From an uncultured Candidatus Peregrinibacteria bacterium (GTDB taxonomy: Bacteria; Patescibacteriota; JACMRA01): a stretch of 53,473 nucleotides of DNA. The notes beneath the pieces are model-generated. The model searched no databases. It was not told the DNA's origin and worked only from the letters and a program-made list of their open reading frames with translations. The position numbers and the translations under genes were made by a program. Each line of letters opens with the position of its first letter. Position 1 is the stretch's first letter. The stretch covers positions 1-53,473 of the forward strand of contig CAKZLR010000051.1 in NCBI GenBank assembly GCA_937127165.1, given 5' to 3'. Of this stretch, positions 3,471-40,012 are shown in pieces.

Positions 3471-5948
3471 CTAAATTTTCTCAAAATCCTCAGTCAATTT
3501 TTCTACATTGCTCTTTGTACCATAAACTAAAATTCCTAAGTATTTAATCTGTTCGGCAGTTTTTTGGAAATACTCAACACTTATTTCAGTATCGTGACTC
3601 ATAGCTTGCATTTCCTCGGTAAAGACTGTGACTAAGAGTTTTTCCTGTTCAGCTTGCCTTTTTAATCTTAGCAAATCCAGAGAATTTATCGACTTCTTAA
3701 TGACAATTGAAGGTTGGATGTTTATATCAATTTGCTCTCCGTCCTTAGTTTTAACTTTTTCTATTGTTAGTATGTTTTTTCTTTCACGTGCGATAAAGTT
3801 AGCAGTTAAGTGGGCAACTGTATTGTATTTTTGCCAATCGTTCATTTTGTTTTCATCTAAAAGCACAATATGAGCCACCATTGTTCGGTTAGACTTTCTT
3901 ATCGGATTATTTTCATTACGAACATGTGGAAAAGTGACACATTCTTTAATATGCTTACCAAGCAAGAATGACAAAAATCTTTCACTAGTGCCAAAACCAG
4001 CCATTGGTGGAGTACCAAGCTCCAAGGCTTTAACATAGTCTTCATCCATAAATTGAGCTTCCTCGTCTCCAGCATCTCTGGCGGCTTGTTGTTGTTCAAA
4101 TCTACCAAATTGGTCTATTGGATCATTTAACTCACTAAAACATTTACCCAATTCGGCAGTGCCAGCTACAATTTGCCATCTTTCGGTCAAATCCGGTCTG
4201 GGTGGGTGCCTTTTAGCTAATGGCTCTAACTCAACCGGAACTAAAGCCAGAAAAATGGGATTTTGAATATATGGTCTAGCTACTTTTTTGTAAATTTTAT
4301 CCATAACACCAGATATTGCTGTACCCGGTTCGATTTCTACCTCGTTATCTTTAGCAATTTGCAACAATTCCTCCAAAGATTTACCTTCAAAATCGACTTT
4401 ACCTTGAGAATAAAATCTGATAGCTTCGAAATATGGGATAATCGGCCAACCAAAGATATTAGCCTCTTCCGGTTTTAGCTCGATTTTAGACTTATTTTTT
4501 TTATCAGAAATATCTGGTTCCCAGACTTTATCTACAGTTGCTAGTCCCCAACCGTTTTTTAAGGCAGTTTCTAGGCTACACCATTCACCCCAGTTAATTT
4601 GGTGGCCATAATAATCTGTTTGGATCATTTCACCTAAAATTTCTTGGACAATTCTTTGATAAATCCGTTTAACCAATTTCATACCATCCGTATAGTCGGC
4701 ATATGCCCAATACCACTCAATCTGAGTATATTCTTGTAAGTGTTGGGGACTGGAGCCCTCGTTACGGAAGATACGACCAATTTCAAAAACTTTTTCAAAA
4801 CCTCCAGCAATCAATTTTTTGAGAGGTAATTCAAGTGAAATTCTAAGATAAACTTCCTGGTCTAATTCATTGTAAAAAGTAGTGAAGGGCCTAGCTTCAG
4901 CTCCACCTGGAATGTGTTCAAAAACTGGGCACTCAACTTCTAAGAAACCTTCTTTTTCCATTTCTTCTCGCCAAATTGACCAATATTTTTGTTTTAACCT
5001 TACCAAATCTCGTACTGACAAACCATTTGGATCTTTGGTGTTCATCTTAAAATCCACTACACGGTTGGTGTATCTTTCTTCAAAATTCTCATAATCTAGT
5101 TTTTCTGGCAGTGGTCGTAGACATTTAGTCAAAATGATAAAAGATTCAACAAACAAACTAGGTTCACCTCGCTGTGATTTGTCTAAATAACCACTAGCTT
5201 GAATATAGTCACCTTCATCGATTAGGGTTTTTAGGTCTTCAAAAGTCAAGGAATTTTGTAAAATCTTGTTAAGTTTTTTTTCTATTAAGTTGGGTCTGTT
5301 ATCAATTACATCTTTTTTAAAGATAAACTGAAAACCTTCTGGTAAACTTTCATCTTCTATGGTAGCAAAACCAATTTTACCGCTCAGTCTTTTAGATTTG
5401 ATTCTACCAGCTAGAACTACCCTTTGGTTTGGTTTTAAACTTATTTGCAATTCAGTCTCGTCTTGCGGATTTTTGTTTTTAAGTCCGAAAAAAGTATTCA
5501 AGTACTCTTCTCTAGTTTCCATAGAAACTTTGAGCAGGTTGGGGAAAAATTTTCTTACTTCGTTTAACTCACTCTCATCAAAATCTAAGATATCTCCAAT
5601 TTCTTCATCTTCTAGGTCTAAATCGACATCTTTAGACATCTGTCTAAGAAATAACCTTTTTTCTTGTTTTTCTATCAAACTACTAGGAAACAAGGCTTGA
5701 TCCAAAAAATGATACTGCATTTCCGGTTCGGGAAACTCGTTTATAAAATTATTCAAATCGTAATCATGAACAAAATTAAACCAAAAACTAACAAAACCTA
5801 AAGTAAAATCTCGCCGACTTTTGACTGCAAAAGGCTCGTGTCCTTTGGCTCGCAGTTTTTCCATTTTTTGGATTCGTAAACTTCTTTGAGAGTCAATTGA
5901 GGATAGTGAAATATTTTGACTGCCGCTTGAAGTACTTTTTTTTGACAT
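3471..5948 (-). CDS. lysS: Lysine--tRNA ligase (class II) with an N-terminal insertion and an extra C-terminal domain of about 140 aa
   Basis: OB-fold segment VVLAGRIKSKRLSGKIGFATIEDES. Class II motif 2 region FRNEGSSPQHLQEYTQIEWY. Motif 3 region GTPPMAGFGTSERFLSFLLG. At 825 aa it is about 300 aa longer than typical LysRS. Confidence 0.9.
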   Translation of the reverse strand: MSKKSTSSGSQNISLSSIDSQRSLRIQKMEKLRAKGHEPFAVKSRRDFTLGFVSFWFNFVHDYDLNNFINEFPEPEMQYHFLDQALFPSSLIEKQEKRLFLRQMSKDVDLDLEDEEIGDILDFDESELNEVRKFFPNLLKVSMETREEYLNTFFGLKNKNPQDETELQISLKPNQRVVLAGRIKSKRLSGKIGFATIEDESLPEGFQFIFKKDVIDNRPNLIEKKLNKILQNSLTFEDLKTLIDEGDYIQASGYLDKSQRGEPSLFVESFIILTKCLRPLPEKLDYENFEERYTNRVVDFKMNTKDPNGLSVRDLVRLKQKYWSIWREEMEKEGFLEVECPVFEHIPGGAEARPFTTFYNELDQEVYLRISLELPLKKLIAGGFEKVFEIGRIFRNEGSSPQHLQEYTQIEWYWAYADYTDGMKLVKRIYQRIVQEILGEMIQTDYYGHQINWGEWCSLETALKNGWGLATVDKVWEPDISDKKNKSKIELKPEEANIFGWPIIPYFEAIRFYSQGKVDFEGKSLEELLQIAKDNEVEIEPGTAISGVMDKIYKKVARPYIQNPIFLALVPVELEPLAKRHPPRPDLTERWQIVAGTAELGKCFSELNDPIDQFGRFEQQQAARDAGDEEAQFMDEDYVKALELGTPPMAGFGTSERFLSFLLGKHIKECVTFPHVRNENNPIRKSNRTMVAHIVLLDENKMNDWQKYNTVAHLTANFIARERKNILTIEKVKTKDGEQIDINIQPSIVIKKSINSLDLLRLKRQAEQEKLLVTVFTEEMQAMSHDTEISVEYFQKTAEQIKYLGILVYGTKSNVEKLTEDFEKI

Positions 5949-6136
5949 ACAAAATGTGTTTAGTCATAATCAACTTGGATTGTCAAATCCAATATTAAGT
6001 AGATTTGTTTGATGTTTTACTAAAAGTTTAAGTTTGTATAATTGCTAATCTTTGTCTGATAGGAGTTAAACCTTCTTATGGGTAGAAACTCTATTGTTCT
6101 TAAATTGTTCAATAAACTTACAAAAGAAAACCAAAT

Positions 6137-16217: not shown

Positions 16218-17045
16218 TCATTCTAGTAAACTTTTCCAATCTTGAGCAAATTTTAGTAATCCTTTTGTTGTTAATTCGTGAGAAATGTCTATGTCTTGCC
16301 ACTTCTGAGTGTAATCTAGATTTTCAAATCCTATGGGTGTCAAGTTTTGAGGAGAATAGGTTATGTTCTGGCTTTGGTGCCATTCTTTTATGATTGATAA
16401 AGGTAAAGTGACAATATCTAGACCAATGTCAAAACAGTACTGTAAATGATTGAGATTGCGGATACTAGCACCCAAAATTTCTACCGGACTCTGAAGTTGT
16501 TGGTACATCTTTTGAACGTTAGCTAACAAATCAACTCCTTTAAGACCAATATCGTCCAGTCTTCCTACAAAAGGAGAAATAAAAACTTGACCCTTGGTAG
16601 CACCTACAGAAATTACTAAATTATGAATAGCTAAGGCTTGTTTTTGATTAAATACTAAAGTAAAATTGGCTCTGCCACCTTGCTTTATGAATTTTGCAGC
16701 AGCCTCTAACGCGGCTGGAATGGTTGGAAACTTAATGTGAGCATTATCTATCCATTCATTCATACTTATAGCTTGCTCGTAAATCTCTTTAGCACTTGTT
16801 CGCTGATCTGCATAAACTTCAATTGACACTGATCCGTTTGGGATTAGCTTGGATATTTTTTGGACATTAGTTTTATAAAAACCAAGCATTTCTTCTTCAG
16901 AAATTTTGCTTGATTGGTTCAAATTTTTGACAACTAAACTAGGATTAGTTGTTTGACCATCTAAGCCACCAAGCATTTCAATCGCCTGAGCTGTTTCAGC
17001 AGGGTTAGCACTATCCAAAAATATTTTAGTTTTTTTGTGAAACAT
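16218..17045 (-). CDS. tal: Transaldolase / fructose-6-phosphate aldolase family protein
   Basis: Motifs FLDSANPAE, GQTTNPSLV, NAHIKFPT (a Lys in the position expected for the Schiff-base lysine), ISPFVGRLDDIG. C-terminal extension of about 50 aa. Confidence 0.85.
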   Translation of the reverse strand: MFHKKTKIFLDSANPAETAQAIEMLGGLDGQTTNPSLVVKNLNQSSKISEEEMLGFYKTNVQKISKLIPNGSVSIEVYADQRTSAKEIYEQAISMNEWIDNAHIKFPTIPAALEAAAKFIKQGGRANFTLVFNQKQALAIHNLVISVGATKGQVFISPFVGRLDDIGLKGVDLLANVQKMYQQLQSPVEILGASIRNLNHLQYCFDIGLDIVTLPLSIIKEWHQSQNITYSPQNLTPIGFENLDYTQKWQDIDISHELTTKGLLKFAQDWKSLLE

Positions 17046-17248
17046 AAAACCGTAAAATGTGTAAAATATATATTTGGTATAACCTTTTGTTTAAATAAAA
17101 TTTGAAAATGTCAATGTGTATTTGTTTTTTTATTAGGTTAAGCAAGTTGATCCAAAAATCTTTACACAAGATTTTAAGTACTAAGTAAGTTGTGCTTTTT
17201 TAAAAAAACTCAAACGCACAAAATCAGGATAATAATTATGTCAAATTG

Positions 17249-18877
17249 TTAATTTCTTTGGTTTTTGTATAAAATTGATAAACAAAATATCAAGACTGAA
17301 AACCAAAAAATTCCTAATTCAAAAAACAGCATTAGCCAAAGATTGTGAATCGGTTGGTGTATACTCAAAGCAAGGTCAGAATTGTAGCTTCTGTGATAAA
17401 AGGGGTATTGACCTAACCCGATTCCAAAGATTTTTTGCCACCAAGGTAGTTGCCAAAAAGTTTCCCAAAACCTAACATATTCATTAATTCTAACCCAATC
17501 GCTACTATAACTATAGGCAAATCTAGAAAAAAATACGAATCCAAAAGTTATGATAAAACTAGATAGAATATACCATTTCTGTTTTATAAATTCAAAGATT
17601 TTAGTCTTTAGCAGTTCTGAGCTAAGGTTCTGTAAACCTATTTTTTGATCCAAAAAATAAACTAATATTAAAAAAATTAGGCTAATCCAAGCAATTCTAC
17701 TAAAACTTAAAACTACAATTGCTCCGCTAATTAGTTTTAACCACCAACTTAGGGATTTTAATCTGTAATTGGTATTGTATTTTTTAAGTAAAATTGCTAA
17801 CCAAAACCCTAAAATACCAACAAAACCAAGAATATTTGGATGTTGCATCAAACCGTAACCTCTTAGTAAGACTAAATAATAATCGCCTATAGGTTGTCTA
17901 GCTGTAAATCTGGTATTGAGAGACACTGGTGGTTCGCCTAAAAATTGTAATCCTAAATTGTGTCCAGTAATAACTTGACCAGTCGCTACTACTAGATTTT
18001 GAATAAAAAATAATGTTAATAAGAATAGAACACTGGTGAATAGAATTTTGGGAATGTTTTCGGTATAGTTTAGAATTTGCTTAAAAATGGACATCCCCGA
18101 AATAGTGATTTTTGTAGCTAATGAAGAGTTTTTAGAAGAAACAGAGGTTTGTTCAAAATTTAACCGGTCGTTTTTAAGAAAAGGTGTTAACAAATTTTGA
18201 CCAGATTGAACAGGTAATCTTTGAAAAGTGTTGATATCGTGTTTCAAGTATTTCCAATTATTAAAGTTTAGATTTTCTAATCCCGAATTAAACAAAAATG
18301 ATTTTTGAGATTTTATCTGAGAAAGTAAACTAGTTGGTTTTTGAAGTAAACCAGAAATAAAACCAAGCCAGATTATTTGAAAGATAACCCAAGCTAGCAA
18401 AACCCCAAAAGGGCTAGAAAGTAGCAAATGATCAAGTAAAGAGTATGCTCCTAAAACAATCAGCCAAATTTTGAATAGGGGTTGTCGAAACCATCGCCAA
18501 AAACCAACTAAAATTGCTAGCCACAGAACCAAATTTGACCAAAAAATAATCATACTAGCTAGCTCATCTAGGCTAGGGTTGGCTAGGTTGATTTGCCATA
18601 AAGAGATTGTTAACAGCCCTAAAACAAAAAATTTGTAGAGAATATTTTGTCGAAAAAGTTCAAAAAAGACTAGTATCAAAACAATTAAGTTGCCTAAAGA
18701 TAAGACAATATCCAAAAAGTTATTCACTAAAGAATAGCCTAAAAAAGGATTAAAATTTACAAATTTGGGCCACAACAAAGCTAAACAAGCAAGAAATAAA
18801 CAACTAGCCAAAACTAAATGCTTAAATAGATATTTAAGCTGAAATGTATTATATGTCACAACTTCTACATAAGTCAT
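17249..18877 (-). CDS. O-antigen ligase/polymerase (Wzy_C)-like polytopic membrane protein
   Basis: 542 aa with more than 10 hydrophobic helices. The segment LSFSRIAWISLIFLILVYFL followed by a loop resembles the Wzy_C core. Assignment is moderate. Confidence 0.55.
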   Translation of the reverse strand: MTYVEVVTYNTFQLKYLFKHLVLASCLFLACLALLWPKFVNFNPFLGYSLVNNFLDIVLSLGNLIVLILVFFELFRQNILYKFFVLGLLTISLWQINLANPSLDELASMIIFWSNLVLWLAILVGFWRWFRQPLFKIWLIVLGAYSLLDHLLLSSPFGVLLAWVIFQIIWLGFISGLLQKPTSLLSQIKSQKSFLFNSGLENLNFNNWKYLKHDINTFQRLPVQSGQNLLTPFLKNDRLNFEQTSVSSKNSSLATKITISGMSIFKQILNYTENIPKILFTSVLFLLTLFFIQNLVVATGQVITGHNLGLQFLGEPPVSLNTRFTARQPIGDYYLVLLRGYGLMQHPNILGFVGILGFWLAILLKKYNTNYRLKSLSWWLKLISGAIVVLSFSRIAWISLIFLILVYFLDQKIGLQNLSSELLKTKIFEFIKQKWYILSSFIITFGFVFFSRFAYSYSSDWVRINEYVRFWETFWQLPWWQKIFGIGLGQYPFYHRSYNSDLALSIHQPIHNLWLMLFFELGIFWFSVLIFCLSILYKNQRN

Positions 18878-19034
18878 TTTTTATAAATTTGTCTAAAAGA
18901 TTATATCTTTATCAAAAATTTAAATTAAATTTAGTGTGGATATTCCGCACTAAAATGGTAGATAAATTTAAACAATCTTGACAAGATTAGTTATTAAGTT
19001 ATTATTTTTTTACTTTTTGTTAAATTTTTTTATT

Positions 19035-19220
19035 ATGATTAAAGCTCAAAATCCAAACACAGAAGAATGGTTTGATCTACCCGAGGGTACTTTGGTCGGG
19101 GAGATAGTAACCGATCCTATAACAGGAGAAATGTTCGAAGTGGTCGCAATTGGAGATGGTAAAAACGGTGGAATCGCTACTTTAAGACTAGTAAATGTAG
19201 AAGAGGATTGGGGGCAATAA
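19035..19220 (+). CDS. LysW-like amino-group carrier mini-protein (Cys-less, C-terminus EEDWGQ)
   Basis: 61 aa from ATG 19035: MIKAQNPNTEEWFDLPEGTLVGEIVTDPITGEMFEVVAIGDG...LRLVNVEEDWGQ*. The acidic C-terminal EDWG motif and the beta-hairpin-like layout parallel LysW (C-terminal EDWGE). It lies 180 nt upstream of a LysX-type ligase. The ORF track starts at TTG 18978. Confidence 0.5.
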   Translation: MIKAQNPNTEEWFDLPEGTLVGEIVTDPITGEMFEVVAIGDGKNGGIATLRLVNVEEDWGQ

Positions 19221-19400
19221 AAAGCATAAAACCATGATTTTTTTGGTTTGTTAATATGTGTTTTTAATACAAATTTGTTTTTGGTGTTGCCGTTTGCTGT
19301 AACTAGCTCTTTGTCAATATTTTTTCAAGTCAAATTAAAATTACAAAAAGCTAAAATTTTAAACGATTTTGAAATTAACATTTGCTACATTTGCTAAATT

Positions 19401-20240
19401 ATGAAAAAAATAGCACTCCTTCATACAGGAATTAGATTAGATGAAAAACTAATCATTGAGGCGGCTGAAAAACGACGTATTCATATTGAACTGGTCAATT
19501 TTAATGAAGTTATTTTAGACCCTCAGCAAATAGATTACTGGTTACAGTTTGATTGTCTTTTAGAAAGATGTGTCTCTACTGTAAAAGGTAACGCGGCGAT
19601 TGAATTTTTTAGTAATCTTGGACTTAGAATAGTAAATAATAAACAGATAATGAATATTTGTAACGACAAATTTCAGACCTCTACAATTTTAACAAAACAC
19701 AAAGTTCCTCACCTTAAATCCATTTTGGTTTTTGGGGAAAACCAGGTAAGACAGGCTGTTGATATGCTTGGTGGTTATCCTGTAGTTATTAAATCTAGGG
19801 AAGGTTCTTGGGGTAGATTTGTCAGTAAAGTTAATGATGAAGATTCTTTGGAGGCTATATTTGATCTTAGATGTCAGGTTGGAGTGACTCATCAAGCTCA
19901 CATCGTTCAAAAGTACATAAGTAAGAAAAATAACCGAGATATTAGGGCTGCTACTATAGATGGTAAAGTTGTGGCCGCAATATATCGCACTACAGAGCAC
20001 TGGATCACAAATACTGCTAGAGGGGCTAAAGCTACCTACTGCCCTATAGATGAAGATTTACAGAATATTTGTAAAATGGCTTCTGATGCAGTCGGTGGCG
20101 GAATTTTAGGAATAGATGTTTTTGAAACTGATACTGGTTATATTATCAACGAGATAAACCATACAATGGAGTACAAGAATGTACAAGCTGCTACAGGAAT
20201 CAACATTGCTGATAAAATTTTAGATTTTTGTGTTGGCTAA
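19401..20240 (+). CDS. lysX: LysX/ArgX/RimK-family ATP-grasp ligase
   Basis: Motifs GYPVVIKSREGSWGR, RDIRAATIDGKVVAAIYR, EHWITNTARGAKA, GGGILGIDVFE, INEINHTMEYKN. These closely match remembered LysX signatures (HWITNTARGG, NEVNHTMEFKN). Length is 279 aa. Confidence 0.85.
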   Translation: MKKIALLHTGIRLDEKLIIEAAEKRRIHIELVNFNEVILDPQQIDYWLQFDCLLERCVSTVKGNAAIEFFSNLGLRIVNNKQIMNICNDKFQTSTILTKHKVPHLKSILVFGENQVRQAVDMLGGYPVVIKSREGSWGRFVSKVNDEDSLEAIFDLRCQVGVTHQAHIVQKYISKKNNRDIRAATIDGKVVAAIYRTTEHWITNTARGAKATYCPIDEDLQNICKMASDAVGGGILGIDVFETDTGYIINEINHTMEYKNVQAATGINIADKILDFCVG

Positions 20241-20472
20241 TTTTCAACTCATTTTTAGAATAATTTGGAAGGATATGCATTTTTTCATATCTAAAGTGAT
20301 AAATTAAAGTGATATTTCAATTAGTCAGAATTTTTTATTTGTAGTGTTTGCTAGTGAGCTTGATTTTTCGAAGCACAAAAAGTGAGCACTAAGCACTTGA
20401 CAAAAGTAGATTTTGTCCTTAACCTCCCAGTTCTATTAGCTTAAATTAGTTTGAAAACTATATATCTATAAT

Positions 20473-21072
20473 ATGATCGGCACCAATCAAATATATGAGT
20501 TATATTTCATTCTTAATCCAGAATTATCTGCTGAGCAAATAGATACCCAGATTTCTAAAATCTCTAAACTTGTAAAAGATGAAATAGGTGGAGAAAATAT
20601 AGAAATAGAAAAACAAGGTTTAAAAAGATTAGCTTATAGAGTCAAAAAACATTACAGTGGGTCTTATGTATTAATGAATTTTGAGCTAGAACTGGAAAAT
20701 TGTAAAAAAATTGGTAGTTTGGAGAAAAAATTAAATATAGAAAAAGAGGTTCTGCGATATATAATTCTTAATCAAACTGAATTTCTTATTCAAAAATCAA
20801 AAGAAAAACCTTCAGCCACGGAAATCAAGAGTCATAATGAATTAAATAAAAAAGCTAAGAGACCTAAAGACAGAAAATGTATAGTTAAACATATGGGTTT
20901 AAGAGTAATAGATTACAAAGATGTGGATTTCTTGCAACAGTTTGTGTCTCCATATGCTAAGATTTTCCACAGGGATAAAACCGGTACCGGTGCAAAGTTT
21001 CAAAGAAAAATAGCTAAAGCAGTAAAAAGAGCCAGACATATGGCCTTAATGCCTTTTACTCCTCAGGAGTAA
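20473..21072 (+). CDS. rpsF: Fused ribosomal proteins S6 (N-terminal) and S18 (C-terminal)
   Basis: The N-terminal ~95 aa YELYFILNPELSAEQIDTQISKI...GLKRLAYRVKKHYSGSYVLMNFE is S6. A basic linker follows. The C-terminal CIVKHMGLRVIDYKDVDFLQQFVSPYAKIFHRDKTGTGAKFQRKIAKAVKRARHMALMPFT is S18. It is one uninterrupted ORF. Confidence 0.85.
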   Translation: MIGTNQIYELYFILNPELSAEQIDTQISKISKLVKDEIGGENIEIEKQGLKRLAYRVKKHYSGSYVLMNFELELENCKKIGSLEKKLNIEKEVLRYIILNQTEFLIQKSKEKPSATEIKSHNELNKKAKRPKDRKCIVKHMGLRVIDYKDVDFLQQFVSPYAKIFHRDKTGTGAKFQRKIAKAVKRARHMALMPFTPQE

Positions 21073-21270
21073 CTCTTGTTTAAGAGTAAAGATTTTACAT
21101 TTCAGTATTTGTTGTAGTTTACAAAGTTTAAAATCTACCTTGGTTAAGTGTTGCACTGGTGGTGGTATGTTTTTTGGGTTTGTTTAAGTTAATTTAGATT
21201 TAACCCATAAAAAACACTAGAATTTAGACATACAAACATACAAGAATATCGTCGGGATTACCATTAGTTA

Positions 21271-22455
21271 TTAGTTATTTTTCTGAAATTTGTATTTTTG
21301 CCACCATTCATCAAACTTGCCAGTGTTAATTTTTTGTCTTATTTTAGCTGTTAAATTATGATAAAATTCTAGATTATGCATTGTGGCTAATCTATAACCT
21401 AAGGTTTCTCTAGTTTTAAAGAGATGCCTTAAATAGCTTTTAGAATATTGTCTAAGCTCTGCGAAATTGGAGTTAGGATTGATTGGGTTAACGTCTGTTT
21501 CAAATTTTTTTTGTAAAATTCGTTCGGTAGTGTAAGTATTGTCATCAAGTTCAAAAAACAAGGTTCCATGCCTAGCGTTTCGGGTGGGGTAGACGCAGTC
21601 AAACAAATCAATACCATACCCCACGAATCTAACTAAGTCGGTAGGGGTTCCTACTCCCAATAAATGTTTGGGTTTGTAAGTTTCTAAAATACTAGTTTGA
21701 ATATCAACTTGGTTCCACCTGCTTTCTTCTGGTTCTGGTCCCATAGCCATACCGCCAATTGAATAACCCGGAAAATCTAGTTCTAGAATCATTTCTGCAG
21801 ACCTCTGGCGAAGATCCAAAAATCTTGCTCCTTGGGTTATACCAAAAAGAATGTTTTGTTTACCCGATTTGTCATAACCTTGTGAGCCTATCCATTTACC
21901 TTGGTGTAGTTTTATCCACTCCTTTTTGCTTCTTTTAGACCATCTAAAAGTTCTTTCAATTGCTTGTTCATTCAGCTTATAATTCGTTTCTTCTACTGGT
22001 AAATAGTCTAAAACTAAGGAAATATCGGAGTTGATGACAGTCTGAATTTGCATACTTTGTTCTGGACTAAAAAAAATCCTATCCCCACTTTCAGGTATAG
22101 TAAAGAGGATTCCTTCTTCGTTAGAAATATTATTTTTTCTGAGACTAAACATCTGAAAACCTCCAGAATCTGTTAAAATTGGTCCGTCCCAACTATTAAA
22201 TTGATGTAAACCTCCAAACTGTTTTAGCACTTTGATACCTGGTTTGAGCCATAAATGGTAAGTGTTACTGAGCAAAATTTGGGCTCCGGTGGTTTTTAAT
22301 TCCTTGTTAGTGAGAGTTTTAACTGTTCCAAGAGTGCCAATTGACATAAATGCTGGAGTATGCACAGTTCCGTGAACTAGGTTTAAGGTTCCAGTTCTAG
22401 CTTTAGTTTTTGGAGATTGCTGATGTATCTGAAAAATATTATACAAATATGCCAT
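21271..22455 (-). CDS. tgt: Queuine tRNA-ribosyltransferase (tRNA-guanine transglycosylase)
   Basis: Motifs ARTGTLNLVHGTVHTPAFM, LSNTYHL, ILTDSGGFQ, GIDLFDCVYPTRNARHG. Confidence 0.95.
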   Translation of the reverse strand: MAYLYNIFQIHQQSPKTKARTGTLNLVHGTVHTPAFMSIGTLGTVKTLTNKELKTTGAQILLSNTYHLWLKPGIKVLKQFGGLHQFNSWDGPILTDSGGFQMFSLRKNNISNEEGILFTIPESGDRIFFSPEQSMQIQTVINSDISLVLDYLPVEETNYKLNEQAIERTFRWSKRSKKEWIKLHQGKWIGSQGYDKSGKQNILFGITQGARFLDLRQRSAEMILELDFPGYSIGGMAMGPEPEESRWNQVDIQTSILETYKPKHLLGVGTPTDLVRFVGYGIDLFDCVYPTRNARHGTLFFELDDNTYTTERILQKKFETDVNPINPNSNFAELRQYSKSYLRHLFKTRETLGYRLATMHNLEFYHNLTAKIRQKINTGKFDEWWQKYKFQKNN

Positions 22456-34223: not shown

Positions 34224-35283
34224 AATTTTTCGTTTTAAAAGACAAACCAATATCACTGAGTATTTTTACCCAAATGTTTTTTGCTGATATGATTTTGAGT
34301 TCTAAATTTTAGTTAGATTTAACGGTGCAAGTGATATCCATAAGTTTAGAATAAAGTAAAATTAAGTCAAGAGGGTAATTTTTAAATTTTGTCATAAAAC
34401 AAGGTAGCTATTTTTTTCTTTGAGGTAAAGTTGATAAAACGAATAGGTTACAAAAGTAGTACCAGTCATTTCTAAAGGTTCTTCCAAAACAACCCGCATA
34501 AAAATTTTACAGGTAGCAAATAACCGTCGGTTTGTCTAGTTTTATAAAAGGTACCCCTAATAGCAACAAAAAACCAAAAAGAGTAAGTTCTCAGGAACCT
34601 GTATCTCACATTTTCCCAAGTCTTATAAGTAAAGAATAAAAGTAGGAATGATAATAAAAAATGTGGCTCCTTCGATGGTTATATAAATAAGCAAATTAAA
34701 AAACAAAAACAGAACCAAAAATTACCATTTTCCCAAAAATCTTTTTATTTAAAGTAGTAATATGTATGAAGACCAAAAAATCAAAAAATAAAAGTTTTAA
34801 CTCTTAATAGACAGTTGAGATATTTGACTCCAAATCTTAAAAACCGACTAATAACCGACTAATATTGGGAAACAGTAAAATGTAAGTTTATTAAAATCAA
34901 GTCAAAAGCTAAAAAACCATAACAACCTGTTTTTAGCAAAAAAGTTTAGAGACATCCATATAAACCAGACCAAAATTAAGGCACAATGTTTTTGACAAAA
35001 AACAGACTAGCTAAAAATATTAATCGTTGTCAAACTTCTTACAAGTGAGACTAAGTTGTAAACTTGGTTCACTAAAGCCTTGTCCTTCTTTATTTATTGT
35101 TTGGAAGTTTTGTATGGTTTTTTACTTGATAAGCTTAGGTCTTTATCCGACTTTAGTAAAATTAATAAGCCGAATTTAAGTAAAGTACAACTTTTTGTGG
35201 GTCTGTTTGTGAATATTGTTTTTTTAAATTTTAATTTTTTGGTTTTTAGAAATTTGCAGATATTTTAGATTTTGTATTCTAAC

Positions 35284-36489
35284 TTAAAAATTAACTATTA
35301 GTCCATATCTATGAACAAAATTTACTGTTTCTAAATCAAAGTTATCTAAAATCAAATCACTTACTTCAATTCTGTTTACCTTTAAGCCTTTTGTAGTAAA
35401 AAAACTTTCCCAAAAAATAAAATCTGTAGTATAAAAAAAGTATTGAGCGTATTCTCTACCAAGGAATAAAGGTGGTATTTCTAGGCTTCCTTCGGGTAGT
35501 CTTCCTAGCTTTTTGATCAAAATATCATATAATTTTCGGGGATCAGCAAAACTGTTGGTTTCTTTTTGAAAGATCTGAACATCATAAAAAAACAAATCAA
35601 GCAATTCTCCTTGCATCACAAAATTTATTTGTTTAGACATTTCTTGAATAGCTTCTTGATACTTTTTGAATTTGGTGTGGATGTATATGTTGGTATACAA
35701 TTGTTTTGTCCAAAAACCTTTGAATAGATTATATTTTTTATATTTTTCTAGTAAGGCAAATAGATAAGCTTCCAAAAACAGTTTCTTTTCTTCATAGTGG
35801 TCTATTTGTGCTATCTTCAAGATTTTTATGTCATTTGCCGATACTTTTTGCCAACCCAAAAAACAATGGAATTTTGCTAGTTTACAAGTTTCTGTAAAAT
35901 CTTCCAACCCCAAGTCAATTTTATCTATTTCAACTTTCCAGATAAAATAATCAGCTACTTGAGCCAAAATTAAATTTTTTAACTCGTTGTTGATCTTAAA
36001 AATATCGGCAAAGACTAGTGTTTTAATGTTTGGTTTTATTTTTTTGATTTCATTTATGCCTTCCAGGATGTCTCGACACAATCCGTTTTGTACATAAAAA
36101 ACCACCAAATCTACTGTGACTTCTGATTGTAGAAAATTTTTAAGCAGAGTAGTGTTCCAGTGAAGAGTGCTTTTTTCAATGTCTAGACTCACCAATTCAG
36201 TTCTTGCAGACAACCAACTCACTAGTTCTTCTGGGCATAAAGGATGAATTAGTACTTGCTTAAAACTTAGTTGTTTATTCAAAAGGTGTTGCAGACAACT
36301 CGGTAAATCACAAAAAGCTTTTAGGGTAAAAAACTCTGAAGTATCCACTTCTTGTGAATCACTAGCAAGGATTTTTTCAACAAAACGTTTTAGAAAAACA
36401 CTATGTTCTACTAAGTCAAGCTTGAGAGTGTTGATAACAATTTCAATTTTCTGCCAAATTTGAGTTGAATTTAGTGTGCTACCTTTCAC
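35284..36489 (-). CDS. Hypothetical protein (no recognisable family), downstream of gltX on the same strand
   Basis: 401-aa ORF with GTG start, soluble-looking, and no motif I can name. Confidence 0.55.
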   Translation of the reverse strand: MKGSTLNSTQIWQKIEIVINTLKLDLVEHSVFLKRFVEKILASDSQEVDTSEFFTLKAFCDLPSCLQHLLNKQLSFKQVLIHPLCPEELVSWLSARTELVSLDIEKSTLHWNTTLLKNFLQSEVTVDLVVFYVQNGLCRDILEGINEIKKIKPNIKTLVFADIFKINNELKNLILAQVADYFIWKVEIDKIDLGLEDFTETCKLAKFHCFLGWQKVSANDIKILKIAQIDHYEEKKLFLEAYLFALLEKYKKYNLFKGFWTKQLYTNIYIHTKFKKYQEAIQEMSKQINFVMQGELLDLFFYDVQIFQKETNSFADPRKLYDILIKKLGRLPEGSLEIPPLFLGREYAQYFFYTTDFIFWESFFTTKGLKVNRIEVSDLILDNFDLETVNFVHRYGLIVNF

Positions 36490-36577
36490 GGTCTTTTAAG
36501 TTAAAAGTTCTGTCTAATAATTAACATTTTTTTTAAAGAAACTTAAGTCAACAAGCTAATACTTTAATTAAGCTTAG

Positions 36578-38719
36578 TCAACATTCATCAACTTTAATTC
36601 TTTTAATCGCCAAAAGTTCAAACGGGCTAGGAGATTTAGTTTTACCTGATAGATTGACTCGAAGTGGCCAGAGGTAGGATCCTGTATCCCTATTACCCTC
36701 TTTTAGCCAATTTTTAATTCTATTTTCCCACTCATTTATTAAGTTTGTTATCTGTTCTTTGATTTGTCTTTCTAGTTCAATAATTCTATTGATTTTAGGG
36801 TTAAAATTTGGAGTAAAAACCGGGGTCAGAGCAATGTATTCTTTAGTAGTTTGGTATAATCTGTCCTGTAAAATTTTTAGTTCTGGTTTTTGAGTTGTTA
36901 TAAATTTTAGAATCTCTTCAAGATTAGCTTGACTTTCCTCGATAGTTATTTTTTTCCATCTAAGATCTTCTAGATTTGGCGGTTTGTAATACAAAATACA
37001 ATCCGATTCACTACCAATTTCACTTAACACGGTAATTCGGTTTTTGTCTAAAATATAAGCTAAATAATGTTCGATAATCTTCTCAGTTGGTTCAAAACAG
37101 GGTAGATGGTTAGAAACACAAAAGTTTTGCCATAAAGAAAATTTAATAAATCTGTTTTGCTCTATAACAGAGGCTAAATCAACCCAGTCATAAAACCATT
37201 CATTCATACTATCTGGTAGTTTTTGGGGTTTTATGTCAGTAATCGCCAAAGGATATACATAAAAAAACATCTGTTTACCAGTCCAACTCTCGCCATCGTG
37301 ATACACAAAAGGTTTGTTTATGAAAATATTTTCTAAACTCATGATTTTGTCTTTTTCTAAAACTAATTGATCCAAAGACTCTTCTTTTACTTCTCTTATT
37401 AAAGAGTCTATGGGGTCACCTTCTCTACCTCCACCAAGTGGGTAATAAAGCCCGTCTCCAGGCATTCTTTCATCGTATGTCATATAGACCTTCTGCTCAT
37501 CGAAATCAACCAAATAAACATAATCACCAATTCTAGCTTTGTTGGTTTTATCTTGAATTAGACGGTTTTTATCAGATAAAAATACAAATTCCTTCAAAGT
37601 TAACATTTTGATATACTCACGATTAAACCAATTAAGTTTTTCTAAACTAAAGCGGGCAGGGGCTTTGGATAATTTAGAAACATCAAACTCTTTAGAGATA
37701 TTATGAAGCAATTTTTCAATTCTTCGCTCTTGGTTAAGTGTTTGAAAATCTTGTGGTTCTAGATATAATTCTTGTTCGGTTCCAGGATTCCACCCTAAAA
37801 AAGCTAGATAATTGAGAATAGCTTCGGGTAAATAACCTTTGTCTAAATAATCTTGCATGTTAACATTACCGTCTCTCTTGCTAAGTTTTTTGGTGCCGGT
37901 TTCTGCTAGTATAAAAGGAATATGCAGATATTTAGGCCCACATCCCCAATAATCCAAAAACATGGTTTGATGTTTGGCTATAGAAGGATACCATTCCTGA
38001 GCTCTAAAAACCAAAGTTGTTTCCATTAAATAATCATCTACAAGATGAGCTAAATGATAGGTTGGAAAACCGTCTGACTTGAGAATTATGAAGTCTTCTT
38101 CTAAGTTCAAATCAAATTCACTTTGCCCCATTAGCTCATCTAGACACCTAATTTTATCATCTCTTTGAATACGGTATCGTAAAACTGGTTTTAAAGGATC
38201 GTTTAGCCCGCTTTGTACAGATTGAAATAGCAAATCCTCACCACTTTTTTCTAGACTTATTTTGAAATAATTAATCGGTTTTTTGTTGATCTTTTTGATT
38301 TCTTGCAACTCGTTTTTTTCTTCTTCGGTTAAGTATGACCAATAAGCTAATCTTTTGTCTATCAGTCTTTGGCTGTGTTCGTGATATAAGGGTAACCTTT
38401 GAGATTGAATATAAGGACCATACTGACCAGTTTGATAAACTCCATAAAAATCATCTGGACCAGAAATTTCATCGTATTTTTTGTAAGAATTGACCAAAGT
38501 TATGCCTTCATCAGGCAAAAGATATAACTGGCTTAAACTTTCTAATAATTTTCTAGCCGAGTCTTTCTGAAGTCTAGTGCGGTCGGTATCCTCTAATCGG
38601 AGGTAGTAGGTTCCCTGTTCTTTAAGAGCAAAAAGTTTGGTGAACAAAATTTGTCTGGTCGTACCAAGATGTAGATAACCTGTGGGTGATGGAGCTTGTC
38701 GGATGCGAAAGTTGGCCAT
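36578..38719 (-). CDS. gltX: Glutamate--tRNA ligase with an inserted Nudix-like domain
   Basis: HIGH region PSPTGYLHLG and KMSKS region KLSKRDG. The C-terminal LWPLRVNLSGKTKSPSPFELL is typical of bacterial GluRS. An inserted segment of about 140 aa contains PLGGGREGDPIDSLIREVKEESL. Start at ATG 38719 (MANFRIRQAPSPTG); the ORF track uses TTG 38758. Confidence 0.9.
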   Translation of the reverse strand: MANFRIRQAPSPTGYLHLGTTRQILFTKLFALKEQGTYYLRLEDTDRTRLQKDSARKLLESLSQLYLLPDEGITLVNSYKKYDEISGPDDFYGVYQTGQYGPYIQSQRLPLYHEHSQRLIDKRLAYWSYLTEEEKNELQEIKKINKKPINYFKISLEKSGEDLLFQSVQSGLNDPLKPVLRYRIQRDDKIRCLDELMGQSEFDLNLEEDFIILKSDGFPTYHLAHLVDDYLMETTLVFRAQEWYPSIAKHQTMFLDYWGCGPKYLHIPFILAETGTKKLSKRDGNVNMQDYLDKGYLPEAILNYLAFLGWNPGTEQELYLEPQDFQTLNQERRIEKLLHNISKEFDVSKLSKAPARFSLEKLNWFNREYIKMLTLKEFVFLSDKNRLIQDKTNKARIGDYVYLVDFDEQKVYMTYDERMPGDGLYYPLGGGREGDPIDSLIREVKEESLDQLVLEKDKIMSLENIFINKPFVYHDGESWTGKQMFFYVYPLAITDIKPQKLPDSMNEWFYDWVDLASVIEQNRFIKFSLWQNFCVSNHLPCFEPTEKIIEHYLAYILDKNRITVLSEIGSESDCILYYKPPNLEDLRWKKITIEESQANLEEILKFITTQKPELKILQDRLYQTTKEYIALTPVFTPNFNPKINRIIELERQIKEQITNLINEWENRIKNWLKEGNRDTGSYLWPLRVNLSGKTKSPSPFELLAIKRIKVDEC

Positions 38720-38826
38720 AAATCGACTATGAAAAAGCTTTGAAAAAACTGTTGTCAAGATTAATCATAATTACTTGTTTTATAAGTTATAAACTTAATT
38801 TTTGCAAAAGGTAGAATTACACCGAA

Positions 38827-38866
38827 TTGACATTAGTTATATTTTATGATATATCGGACCGATATA
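38827..38866 (+). promoter_or_regulatory. Promoter candidate with an overlapping 17-bp palindrome (operator-like)
   Basis: TTGACA (38827-38832), 17-nt spacer ending in TGa, then TATATC (38850-38855). The perfect inverted repeat TATATCGG-a-CCGATATA (38850-38866) overlaps the -10 box, 14 nt upstream of ATG 38880. Confidence 0.35.
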
Positions 38867-38879
38867 GTCTTTCATTTCT

Positions 38880-39413
38880 ATGAAATATGTAGATAGTTTA
38901 GTATCATCCGGTTTTACATATAATAAAAATAGTAAAAGTTTTATCGAGGCTAGGGTTGCAGTCTCCGATTCAGAGTATGATCTGATTCATAAAGTGTTTT
39001 ATCAAATAATTAAAAATTATGGGTTTTTAAATATTGAACAACAACAGGATCTTAAAAGAGTAAAAAAACTGATGCCAAGATTTTTTAAAGATTGGAGACA
39101 CAAAGAAATAGAAAAAGAAGCCAAGAACTTGCTATTAAAAGAAGCCTTTAGATTAAATGCTACAGGTTTTGAGGACTTTTTCCCTAATTTAAAAATATTC
39201 CTGAAAAAATTAACTATTCAATCTATTTTTGAACAATTATATATTGCTCTCACATATAGTAAGATAATATATAATATCTATAAACTCGATTTCGTGACTA
39301 GAATTTATTTAGAAAAAATGTCCATCGTTTTTGATTTACTGTCTCCTTTTTTAACTCAAGAACAGATAACCAAGTGGCAACAAAACATCGCTCCCAAACT
39401 AAAAAGGTTTTAG
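38880..39413 (+). CDS. Hypothetical protein (predicted all-helical)
   Basis: 177-aa ORF with ATG start and no recognisable motif. Confidence 0.55.
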   Translation: MKYVDSLVSSGFTYNKNSKSFIEARVAVSDSEYDLIHKVFYQIIKNYGFLNIEQQQDLKRVKKLMPRFFKDWRHKEIEKEAKNLLLKEAFRLNATGFEDFFPNLKIFLKKLTIQSIFEQLYIALTYSKIIYNIYKLDFVTRIYLEKMSIVFDLLSPFLTQEQITKWQQNIAPKLKRF

Positions 39414-39537
39414 AAATGCGAAGATAAGTAAATATTGAACCACAAAAAAATACCAAATTTCTCGTCTAGCTCTACTAATACTTGCTTTTGTTTTATATCA
39501 ATGTTTCTAGCAACAAGCCCTAATATCTACAAAAATT

Positions 39538-39840
39538 CTAGTTTTGATTTGAACCGGAAAGTCTGTTTCGAATATTATTAACAGCTATAGTTTTTTTGTA
39601 TCTGGAGAGACTGATAGAAGACAGATATCTGAGCAATTTTGCTCTTTTTCCAACTTTTTTCAGCAAACCAACCCTAGAAGAATAGTCTTTTGGATTTTTT
39701 TTGAGGTGATCTGTAAGGTTGTTAATTTCTGCGGTAAGAATAGCAATTTGTACTTCAGGAGAACCTGTATCATCGTCATGAATTTGATTTTTTTGAATTA
39801 TATTGCTTTTGTCGGCTAGAATTTTTTTACTGCTTGACAT
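39538..39840 (-). CDS. rpsO: 30S ribosomal protein S15
   Basis: Motifs DTGSPEVQIAILTAEINNLTDHLKKNPKDYSSRVGLLKKVGKRAKLLRYL. Confidence 0.92.
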   Translation of the reverse strand: MSSSKKILADKSNIIQKNQIHDDDTGSPEVQIAILTAEINNLTDHLKKNPKDYSSRVGLLKKVGKRAKLLRYLSSISLSRYKKTIAVNNIRNRLSGSNQN

Positions 39841-40012
39841 ACTAAAATATTTTAAACGTTTGATGGTTATTATGGGTTATTAGGCAATTTGCTTTAGCAA
39901 AAGCTAAAGCTTGACGAGCTCGTTTGTTGACAAACAAACCAAACTTGTGTTATTTTGTCAATAACAATATTAGCTTGGTTAGGATTGAGTCAATCTTTTT
40001 TATTTTATATCT

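Follow-up and report, generated by a model that had tools for sequence, protein, structure and literature searches.

The stretch of DNA analysed here, the window, is a contig of 53,473 nucleotides (CAKZLR010000051.1, positions given on its forward strand) from the assembly GCA_937127165.1 of an uncultured Candidatus Peregrinibacteria bacterium (GTDB lineage Bacteria; Patescibacteriota; JACMRA01). Its minus strand carries gltX, the only glutamyl-tRNA synthetase (GluRS) gene in the assembly, within which a module with the predicted fold of a Nudix hydrolase is nested in frame. The parts of the gene are as follows, with residues numbered throughout in the 726-residue open frame:

36578..38758, minus strand: gltX open frame of 726 residues including the stop
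37739..38707, minus strand: class I catalytic domain, residues 18-340 (PF00749, E = 2.9e-58)
38660-38671, minus strand: HIGH-like motif HLGT, residues 30-33 (string verified)
37874-37891, minus strand: KMSKS-like motif KKLSKR, residues 290-295 (string verified)
37544..37738, minus strand: linker and first helices of the tRNA-binding body, residues 341-405, containing SKAPARFSLEKLNWFNREYIKMLTLKEF (placed by alignment)
37091..37543, minus strand: nested Nudix-fold module, residues ~406-556, from RIGDY to W-x2-F-C-x2-N-x-L-P-C-F-E (PF00293, AlphaFold, Foldseek and alignment)
37370-37435, minus strand: Nudix box GGGREGDPIDSLIREVKEESLD, residues 442-463 (string verified)
36581..37090, minus strand: rest of the anticodon-binding domain, residues 557-726, with LDKNR and YLWPLR...SPSPFELL (PF19269)

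To judge from its sequence, the host is a working GluRS and the sole copy in the assembled part of a genome that is 84% complete (938 kb), where PF00749 occurs at a single locus. The catalytic domain can be aligned with solved GluRS structures such as 4gri and 1j09, and YadB (1nzj) is matched too. TIGR00464, the NCBIfam equivalog for bacterial gltX, scores 293.8 bits, just above its cut-off of 289.95, and Anticodon_2 (PF19269) scores 36.7 bits (cut-off 23.6) in two stretches that flank the insert. LDKNR and the C-terminal YLWPLR...SPSPFE are invariant in the family alignment, and LWPLRVNLSGKTKSPSPFELL was verified near the C-terminus. Aligned relatives begin at the position of M14, encoded by the ATG at 38719, which is therefore probably the true start and would give a protein of 713 residues. 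The genome also encodes GatA, GatB, tRNA-Glu (UUC) and two tRNA-Gln (CUG and UUG), while no GlnRS was found in the 938-kb, 84%-complete assembly; the single GluRS is therefore presumably non-discriminating and feeds GatCAB. Genetic code 25, which came into question through a relative labelled SR1, was rejected, as table 11 gives ~83% coding with an ordinary use of stop codons and TGA is absent from the gene.

A first-pass annotation, made from the letters and translations of the window, had proposed a Nudix-like insert at 37124-37546 (residues 405-545) of this frame. The frame and the strings quoted there (HLGT, KKLSKR, the box and the C-terminal string) were all found in place and the position of the insert was borne out, with the module now placed at residues ~406-556 and its end including a helix (W543..F546-C547) that is the Nudix subfamily's own. 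The window protein reads KEFVFLSDKNRLIQDKTNKA, then RIGDY...LPCFE, then PTEKIIEHYLAYILDKNR, where canonical GluRS of the same family (L003, 544 residues; L004, 542 residues) read NWFNRQYINMLSLEEYASRSLQHKSLGAPELSAKKYLAWNLDKNR, that is helix 1, a short loop and helix 2. The insert lies in this loop, which joins helices 1 and 2 of the anticodon-binding domain, is short in the canonical relatives of 542-583 residues and holds ~150 extra residues in the window protein. In the full-length AlphaFold model, helices at 372-385 and 388-401 are followed by a unit rich in beta structure, whose helices lie at 449-460, 528-534 and 540-549, and then by the host helix at 559-572. The insert is a self-contained folding unit, whose two ends come together at the host loop and thereby leave the flanking GluRS helices intact.

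The predicted fold of this unit is the alpha/beta/alpha fold of Nudix enzymes. An AlphaFold model of residues 396-575 alone reached a mean predicted local distance difference test score of 84.2 and a predicted template modelling score of 0.82, and Foldseek returned 150 matches to PDB structures at E <= 1e-3 (best E = 9.7e-7, template modelling (TM) score ~0.5). All 50 of the matches listed are Nudix enzymes, including RppH, NudB, MTH1, AtNUDT7 and an Ap4A (diadenosine tetraphosphate) hydrolase. Eleven protein clusters sharing the insert were identified; PF00293 was matched by each of ten family inserts scanned (E <= 1, best E = 2.8e-6), and P0010 has a precomputed match to the same family. The family profile of the insert, searched against PDB sequences, gave matches that were almost all Nudix proteins; a family profile was needed for this, a single-sequence phmmer search of the insert against the PDB having returned only noise with no Nudix match. 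No NCBIfam model matched the insert. The claim that a Nudix-type domain is nested in a genuine GluRS is thus supported both by hidden Markov models and by the predicted fold.

The insert is a member of a small and distinct Nudix subfamily, whose pattern is R/K-x-G-D-Y ... GGGRE ... RE-x2-EE ... G-K ... W ... N ... W-x2-F-C. The module keeps the metal-binding Arg and Glu residues of the Nudix helix: R455-E456-V-K-E459-E460 is intact in the window, E456, E459 and E460 are invariant in an alignment of 12 sequences, as are GGG, G494-K495, W525, N535 and W543, and the Glu triad is retained in 43 of 51 GluRS-linked clusters. Compared by the Nei-Gojobori method with the nearest relative, P0002 (93% identical overall), the ratio of nonsynonymous to synonymous substitution rates (dN/dS) is 0.036 in the Nudix module, 0.023 in the catalytic domain and 0.062 in the rest of the anticodon-binding domain. 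Against the more distant P0004, dN is 0.23, 0.15 and 0.35 for the module, the catalytic domain and the anticodon-binding domain, respectively. The module is under purifying selection as strong as that on the host enzyme, and with a dN/dS as low as that of the rest of the protein it is neither a relic nor an artefact.

A profile search run exhaustively over 1.84 billion cluster representatives recovered only 76 proteins at E <= 1e-3, 18 of them at E <= 1e-30. The GTDB class of the window genome consists of one order with 27 species genomes, in all of which we surveyed the forms of GluRS. The insert recurs, and within this one Candidate Phyla Radiation (CPR) class the same essential enzyme is found plain, Nudix-nested and split into two genes. 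Canonical GluRS of 547-583 residues is present in eight of the 27 genomes and a nested single chain of 708-731 residues in five, including the window. In at least nine others the enzyme is split into an N piece of 320-358 residues and a C piece of 355-417 residues, encoded at unlinked loci on different contigs. The N piece runs to the edge of the catalytic domain, and the C piece starts ~60 residues ahead of the Nudix; the split point corresponds to residues ~335-346 of the window protein, and the N-terminal part of its stretch 341-405 is the place where the gene is divided in sister species. One such pair comprises a 336-residue catalytic piece ending GWNPGTDKEVYLENTEI and a piece of ~400 residues that starts just before LSKSPARF and holds the Nudix together with the anticodon-binding domain. 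That the split is real follows from G003 (N piece of 336 residues, C piece of 409) and L007, where each piece has a start of its own and unrelated neighbours; GluRS is still more fragmented in genus g7 and in G022. Loci with split or degenerate forms are:

L104:1486-2496 and L092:1036-2265, minus strand: split GluRS; also L007:3507-4712, plus strand
L099:75-2156, minus strand: GluRS of G016, 694 residues, with a degenerate insert at the same site (whole Nudix box lost, C-terminal YEWVSLSDFF part kept)

Trees of the GluRS catalytic domain and of the Nudix module were largely unresolved and are unfit for counting gains, losses or splits; the window groups with the split G003 with weak support (92/70). 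Seven of the eight species with plain GluRS have no Nudix of this subfamily at E <= 1e-5, and the eighth, G019, keeps a free-standing copy.

The subfamily occurs at the canonical GluRS site in about 50 clusters and also outside GluRS. The complete signature is also borne by free-standing proteins of 144-231 residues (P0035, P0038-P0043 and P0049). Two of these come from genomes of this class, and the gene neighbourhoods of free-standing members (G019, G007 and P0038) gave no functional hint. In P0030 the same subfamily is joined to a RelA/SpoT-type HD hydrolase-like domain (HD_4, E = 4.5e-4, below cut-off), and in P0045 and P0050 a similar HD-like domain of RelA/SpoT type was recognised by eye.

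Domain nesting is a habit of this lineage and is not confined to synthetases. Elsewhere in the window genome, four PF00293 matches lie within large essential enzymes, namely LeuRS, ValRS and, twice, CarB. These and other composite proteins of the genome and of one relative are:

G000:C18:32161-34346 (L082; frame starts at C18:31609): LeuRS with nested domains on both sides of the editing domain, a Ser_hydrolase/alpha-beta-hydrolase before it (PF06821, E = 1.2e-9) and a Nudix after it (PF00293, 67.9 bits)
G000:C18:16238-19621, minus strand (L084; frame ~C18:16364-19954): ValRS-like frame of 1197 residues with nested HAD_2, alpha/beta-hydrolase and Nudix domains
G000:C23 ~16634-21415, minus strand (L085/L086): CarB, the large subunit of carbamoyl-phosphate synthase, 1594 residues, with a Nudix above cut-off and a HAD domain
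G000:C13:12024-14657, plus strand: EngA/Der GTPase, 878 residues, with two HAD-type domains between its two GTPase domains
Window 3474-5963, minus strand: LysRS, frame of 830 residues, with a C-terminal DUF2000 (PF09391, E = 1.4e-16)
G000:C54, minus strand: primary sigma factor RpoD (regions 1.2-4), frame of 723 residues, fused at its C-terminus to TsaE, the ATPase of N6-threonylcarbamoyladenosine (t6A) biosynthesis (PF02367, E = 7.5e-20)
L007:4959-6983, plus strand: GatA amidase of a relative, 674 residues, with a Nudix near its C-terminus (PF00293, E = 2.2e-13)

The ValRS-like frame begins at about position 184 of the catalytic-domain profile and its N-terminal part may be a separate gene. 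In CarB the HAD domain lies between the two halves of the enzyme, and the second Nudix match is weak (20.7 bits, below cut-off). The L007 GatA gene lies directly downstream of the split GluRS C piece; GatA of the window genome has no such insert. As CarB, EngA and the L007 GatA are not synthetases, the hydrolases nested in them argue against a chemistry specific to aminoacylation.

On balance we favour, with moderate confidence, the view that the module is an autonomous and probably active Nudix pyrophosphohydrolase, tethered to GluRS and co-expressed with it, and acquired by capture of a free-standing gene. It would act as a Mg2+-dependent pyrophosphohydrolase on a nucleoside-diphosphate-X compound, a house-cleaning enzyme that happens to share a chain with GluRS rather than an editing or proofreading site of the synthetase. 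Its gene may have entered a surface loop that tolerates insertion, in a lineage in which genes would be fused, nested and split unusually often. The first-pass annotation had looked instead to editing, or to the clearing of a synthetase by-product such as Ap4A. These functions gained no specific support, there being nothing that ties the domain to aminoacylation chemistry and about a third of the class managing without this Nudix, and Ap4A clean-up in particular is disfavoured because hosts that are not synthetases carry similar inserts. Activation of glutamate by GluRS depends on tRNA, and the enzyme makes little Ap4A.

Several observations weigh against an autonomous, active enzyme. The box of the window copy departs from the canonical one exactly as first described (G-x5-D-x6-RE, REVKEE intact, no Gly after EE; string verified): in G442-x5-D448-x6-R455-E456 the spacing from Gly to Arg is two residues short, Asp448 occupies the usual place of the loop Glu, and Leu-Asp replaces Gly-U after the two Glu residues. 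The deletion of two residues is private to the window's subclade and not family-wide. The window and its five nearest clusters share GGGREG-DPIDSLIREVKEES with the shortened loop, and more distant members have the canonical G-x5-E-x7-R-E-x2-E-E, for example GGREEGETGIENLIRETDEE (P0007, P0008, P0009, P0010 and P0012), a spacing that is also seen in most split forms. In the comparison with PF00293, which the first-pass annotation had proposed as a check, the window's insert by itself gives a weak match over almost the whole profile (positions 9-118 of 134) with 19.5 bits and E = 0.001, under the gathering cut-off of 21.1, whereas relatives pass. The low dN/dS could in part reflect the cost of misfolding within an essential protein. 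The box has decayed and the insert has been kept in about eight GluRS-linked clusters (G009, G016, P0029, P0034, P0036, P0037, P0044 and P0046), so catalysis is not always what keeps the domain. Finally, all split C pieces of 355-417 residues carry the Nudix, and the same subfamily has apparently entered GluRS at a second site in P0031, a C piece of 336 residues that begins with the tail of one Nudix module and has a second module apparently at a different site of the anticodon-binding domain; such recurrent association may mean a functional link to GluRS or to tRNA.

That the module is a functional partner, working with GluRS or its tRNA, is a possibility we consider unlikely. It might hydrolyse a nucleotide at the synthetase, such as (p)ppGpp (guanosine tetra- or pentaphosphate), pGpp, a dinucleoside tetraphosphate (Np4N) or a capped or triphosphorylated RNA end, or it might sense such a nucleotide and modulate charging; in the split species, the piece made of anticodon-binding domain and Nudix would itself be a tRNA-targeted enzyme. 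The association at the canonical site in some 50 clusters and again in P0031, the retention of the Nudix by the split C pieces and the match between selection on the module and on its host are all in keeping with this. So are the fusion of three free-standing relatives (P0030, P0045 and P0050) to a RelA/SpoT-type HD domain, the Rel enzyme encoded in the window genome, the Nudix in a relative's GatA, the next enzyme of the Gln-tRNA pathway, and the top Foldseek matches, which are to RppH, a pyrophosphohydrolase of RNA and Np4A. However, the HD_4 match falls below its cut-off, and RppH, NudB and MTH1 are hardly separated by Foldseek. Furthermore, eight of the 27 species manage with plain GluRS, seven of them with no Nudix of the subfamily, the box has decayed repeatedly, and in the same genome other Nudix, HAD and hydrolase inserts sit in enzymes outside the synthetases. 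The dependence of GluRS on tRNA for activation, and its low output of Ap4A, also speak against a partnership of this kind.

A second active site serving the Glu/Gln-tRNA branch is a slightly more doubtful proposition. The module would in that case be a tRNA-tethered nucleotide hydrolase which removes an alarmone ((p)ppGpp or Np4N) or a 5' cap-like group, a proposal that draws on at least nine sister species in which the unit is a protein of its own and on the capture of the subfamily at two sites of the domain. If this were so, the charging of tRNA-Glu and tRNA-Gln would be coupled to stress signalling and, more broadly, CPR synthetases would serve as scaffolds for exchangeable hydrolase cassettes.

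We think it improbable that the module is non-catalytic, a structural or interaction domain that assembles synthetases, GatCAB or the split halves, for instance, in the manner of the glutathione S-transferase-like domains that assemble the eukaryotic multisynthetase complex, or one that cannot be removed without harm to the host fold. The shortened box of the window subclade, with no loop Glu, would fit this, as would the persistence of the insert after total loss of the box (G016, G009, P0034, P0036, P0037, P0044 and P0046) and the presence of such domains in many different essential proteins of the window genome. However, RE-x2-EE and the pocket-like residues Y413, D418, K495, W525 and N535 show little or no variation in most clusters and recur in the free-standing relatives, which is what catalysis or ligand binding would predict.

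A selfish or mobile insertion (intein-like, an intron or a transposon remnant) or an assembly chimera is very improbable, even though close relatives differ in whether they carry the insert at one exact site, and some of them have the host gene split: the frame is continuous, the junctions DKTNKA/RIGDY and PCFE/PTEK lack the Cys/Ser/Thr ... His-Asn signatures of inteins, an Rfam scan of 35000-40000 matched neither an intron nor any other RNA family, flanking repeats did not exceed chance, base composition showed no shift, the module has an ordinary enzyme fold under purifying selection, and the same architecture comes from many independent assemblies and sources, including clusters of 49 and 3 members (NCBI, JGI, ENA and Logan) as well as several metagenome assemblies under different names, on which ground an assembly artefact was rejected.

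Bacterial aminoacyl-tRNA synthetases are usually held to be architecturally conservative, and accessory domains are seen as a eukaryotic speciality. The three states of GluRS in one class offer a natural experiment on domain insertion, splitting and tolerance in essential proteins. If the Nudix module is active, it represents an uncharacterised subfamily that has a clear sequence signature and whose free-standing relatives are amenable to assay; coupling to tRNA charging would make it an accessory activity of a kind new to synthetases. A two-gene GluRS would extend the short list of naturally split synthetases and provide a ready-made split site for protein engineering.

A Nudix nested in a CPR synthetase is already known from the IleRS of SR1, whose in-frame nested Nudix hydrolase domain was reported in one sentence, with no analysis, in a paper that also mentions fragmented synthetase genes (Kantor 2013, mBio, PMC3812714). 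Both hosts are class I synthetases of CPR bacteria with the Nudix nested in frame. The present host, however, is GluRS, of class Ib, the insert lies in the anticodon-binding domain and not in the catalytic or editing body, and the Nudix subfamily is a different one; its distribution, selection, free-standing relatives and split forms are documented here. Our full-text searches returned no description of a GluRS-Nudix architecture, in line with the first-pass annotation; nor did we find a report of a two-gene GluRS.

Compared with solved free-standing Nudix enzymes (RppH, 6vck and 4s2y, and NudB, 2o1c, of E. coli; human MTH1, 5ghm; lupin Ap4A hydrolase, 1f3y), the module has the same predicted fold and the R-E-x2-E-E catalytic helix. 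It differs in being nested in another enzyme, in having an identity of only 13-25% at a TM score of ~0.5, in an N-terminal strand (R-x-G-D-Y-x-Y-L-x-D) and a C-terminal helix (W-x2-F-C) of its own and, in the window, in a loop two residues shorter with Asp for the loop Glu. With canonical bacterial GluRS (4gri, 2o5r, 1j09/1n78) the window enzyme shares the catalytic domain with its HIGH and KMSKS motifs, the helical anticodon-binding domain and its status as sole copy, whereas it has ~150 extra residues and the gene of its sister species is cut where the catalytic domain ends. Synthetases that are naturally split or truncated include the AlaRS of Nanoarchaeum equitans, encoded by two genes, the alpha and beta subunits of Aquifex aeolicus LeuRS, and GluQRS/YadB, which has no anticodon-binding domain. 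In contrast to these, the C piece of the split GluRS described here also carries a Nudix, and fused, split and plain forms coexist in one family.

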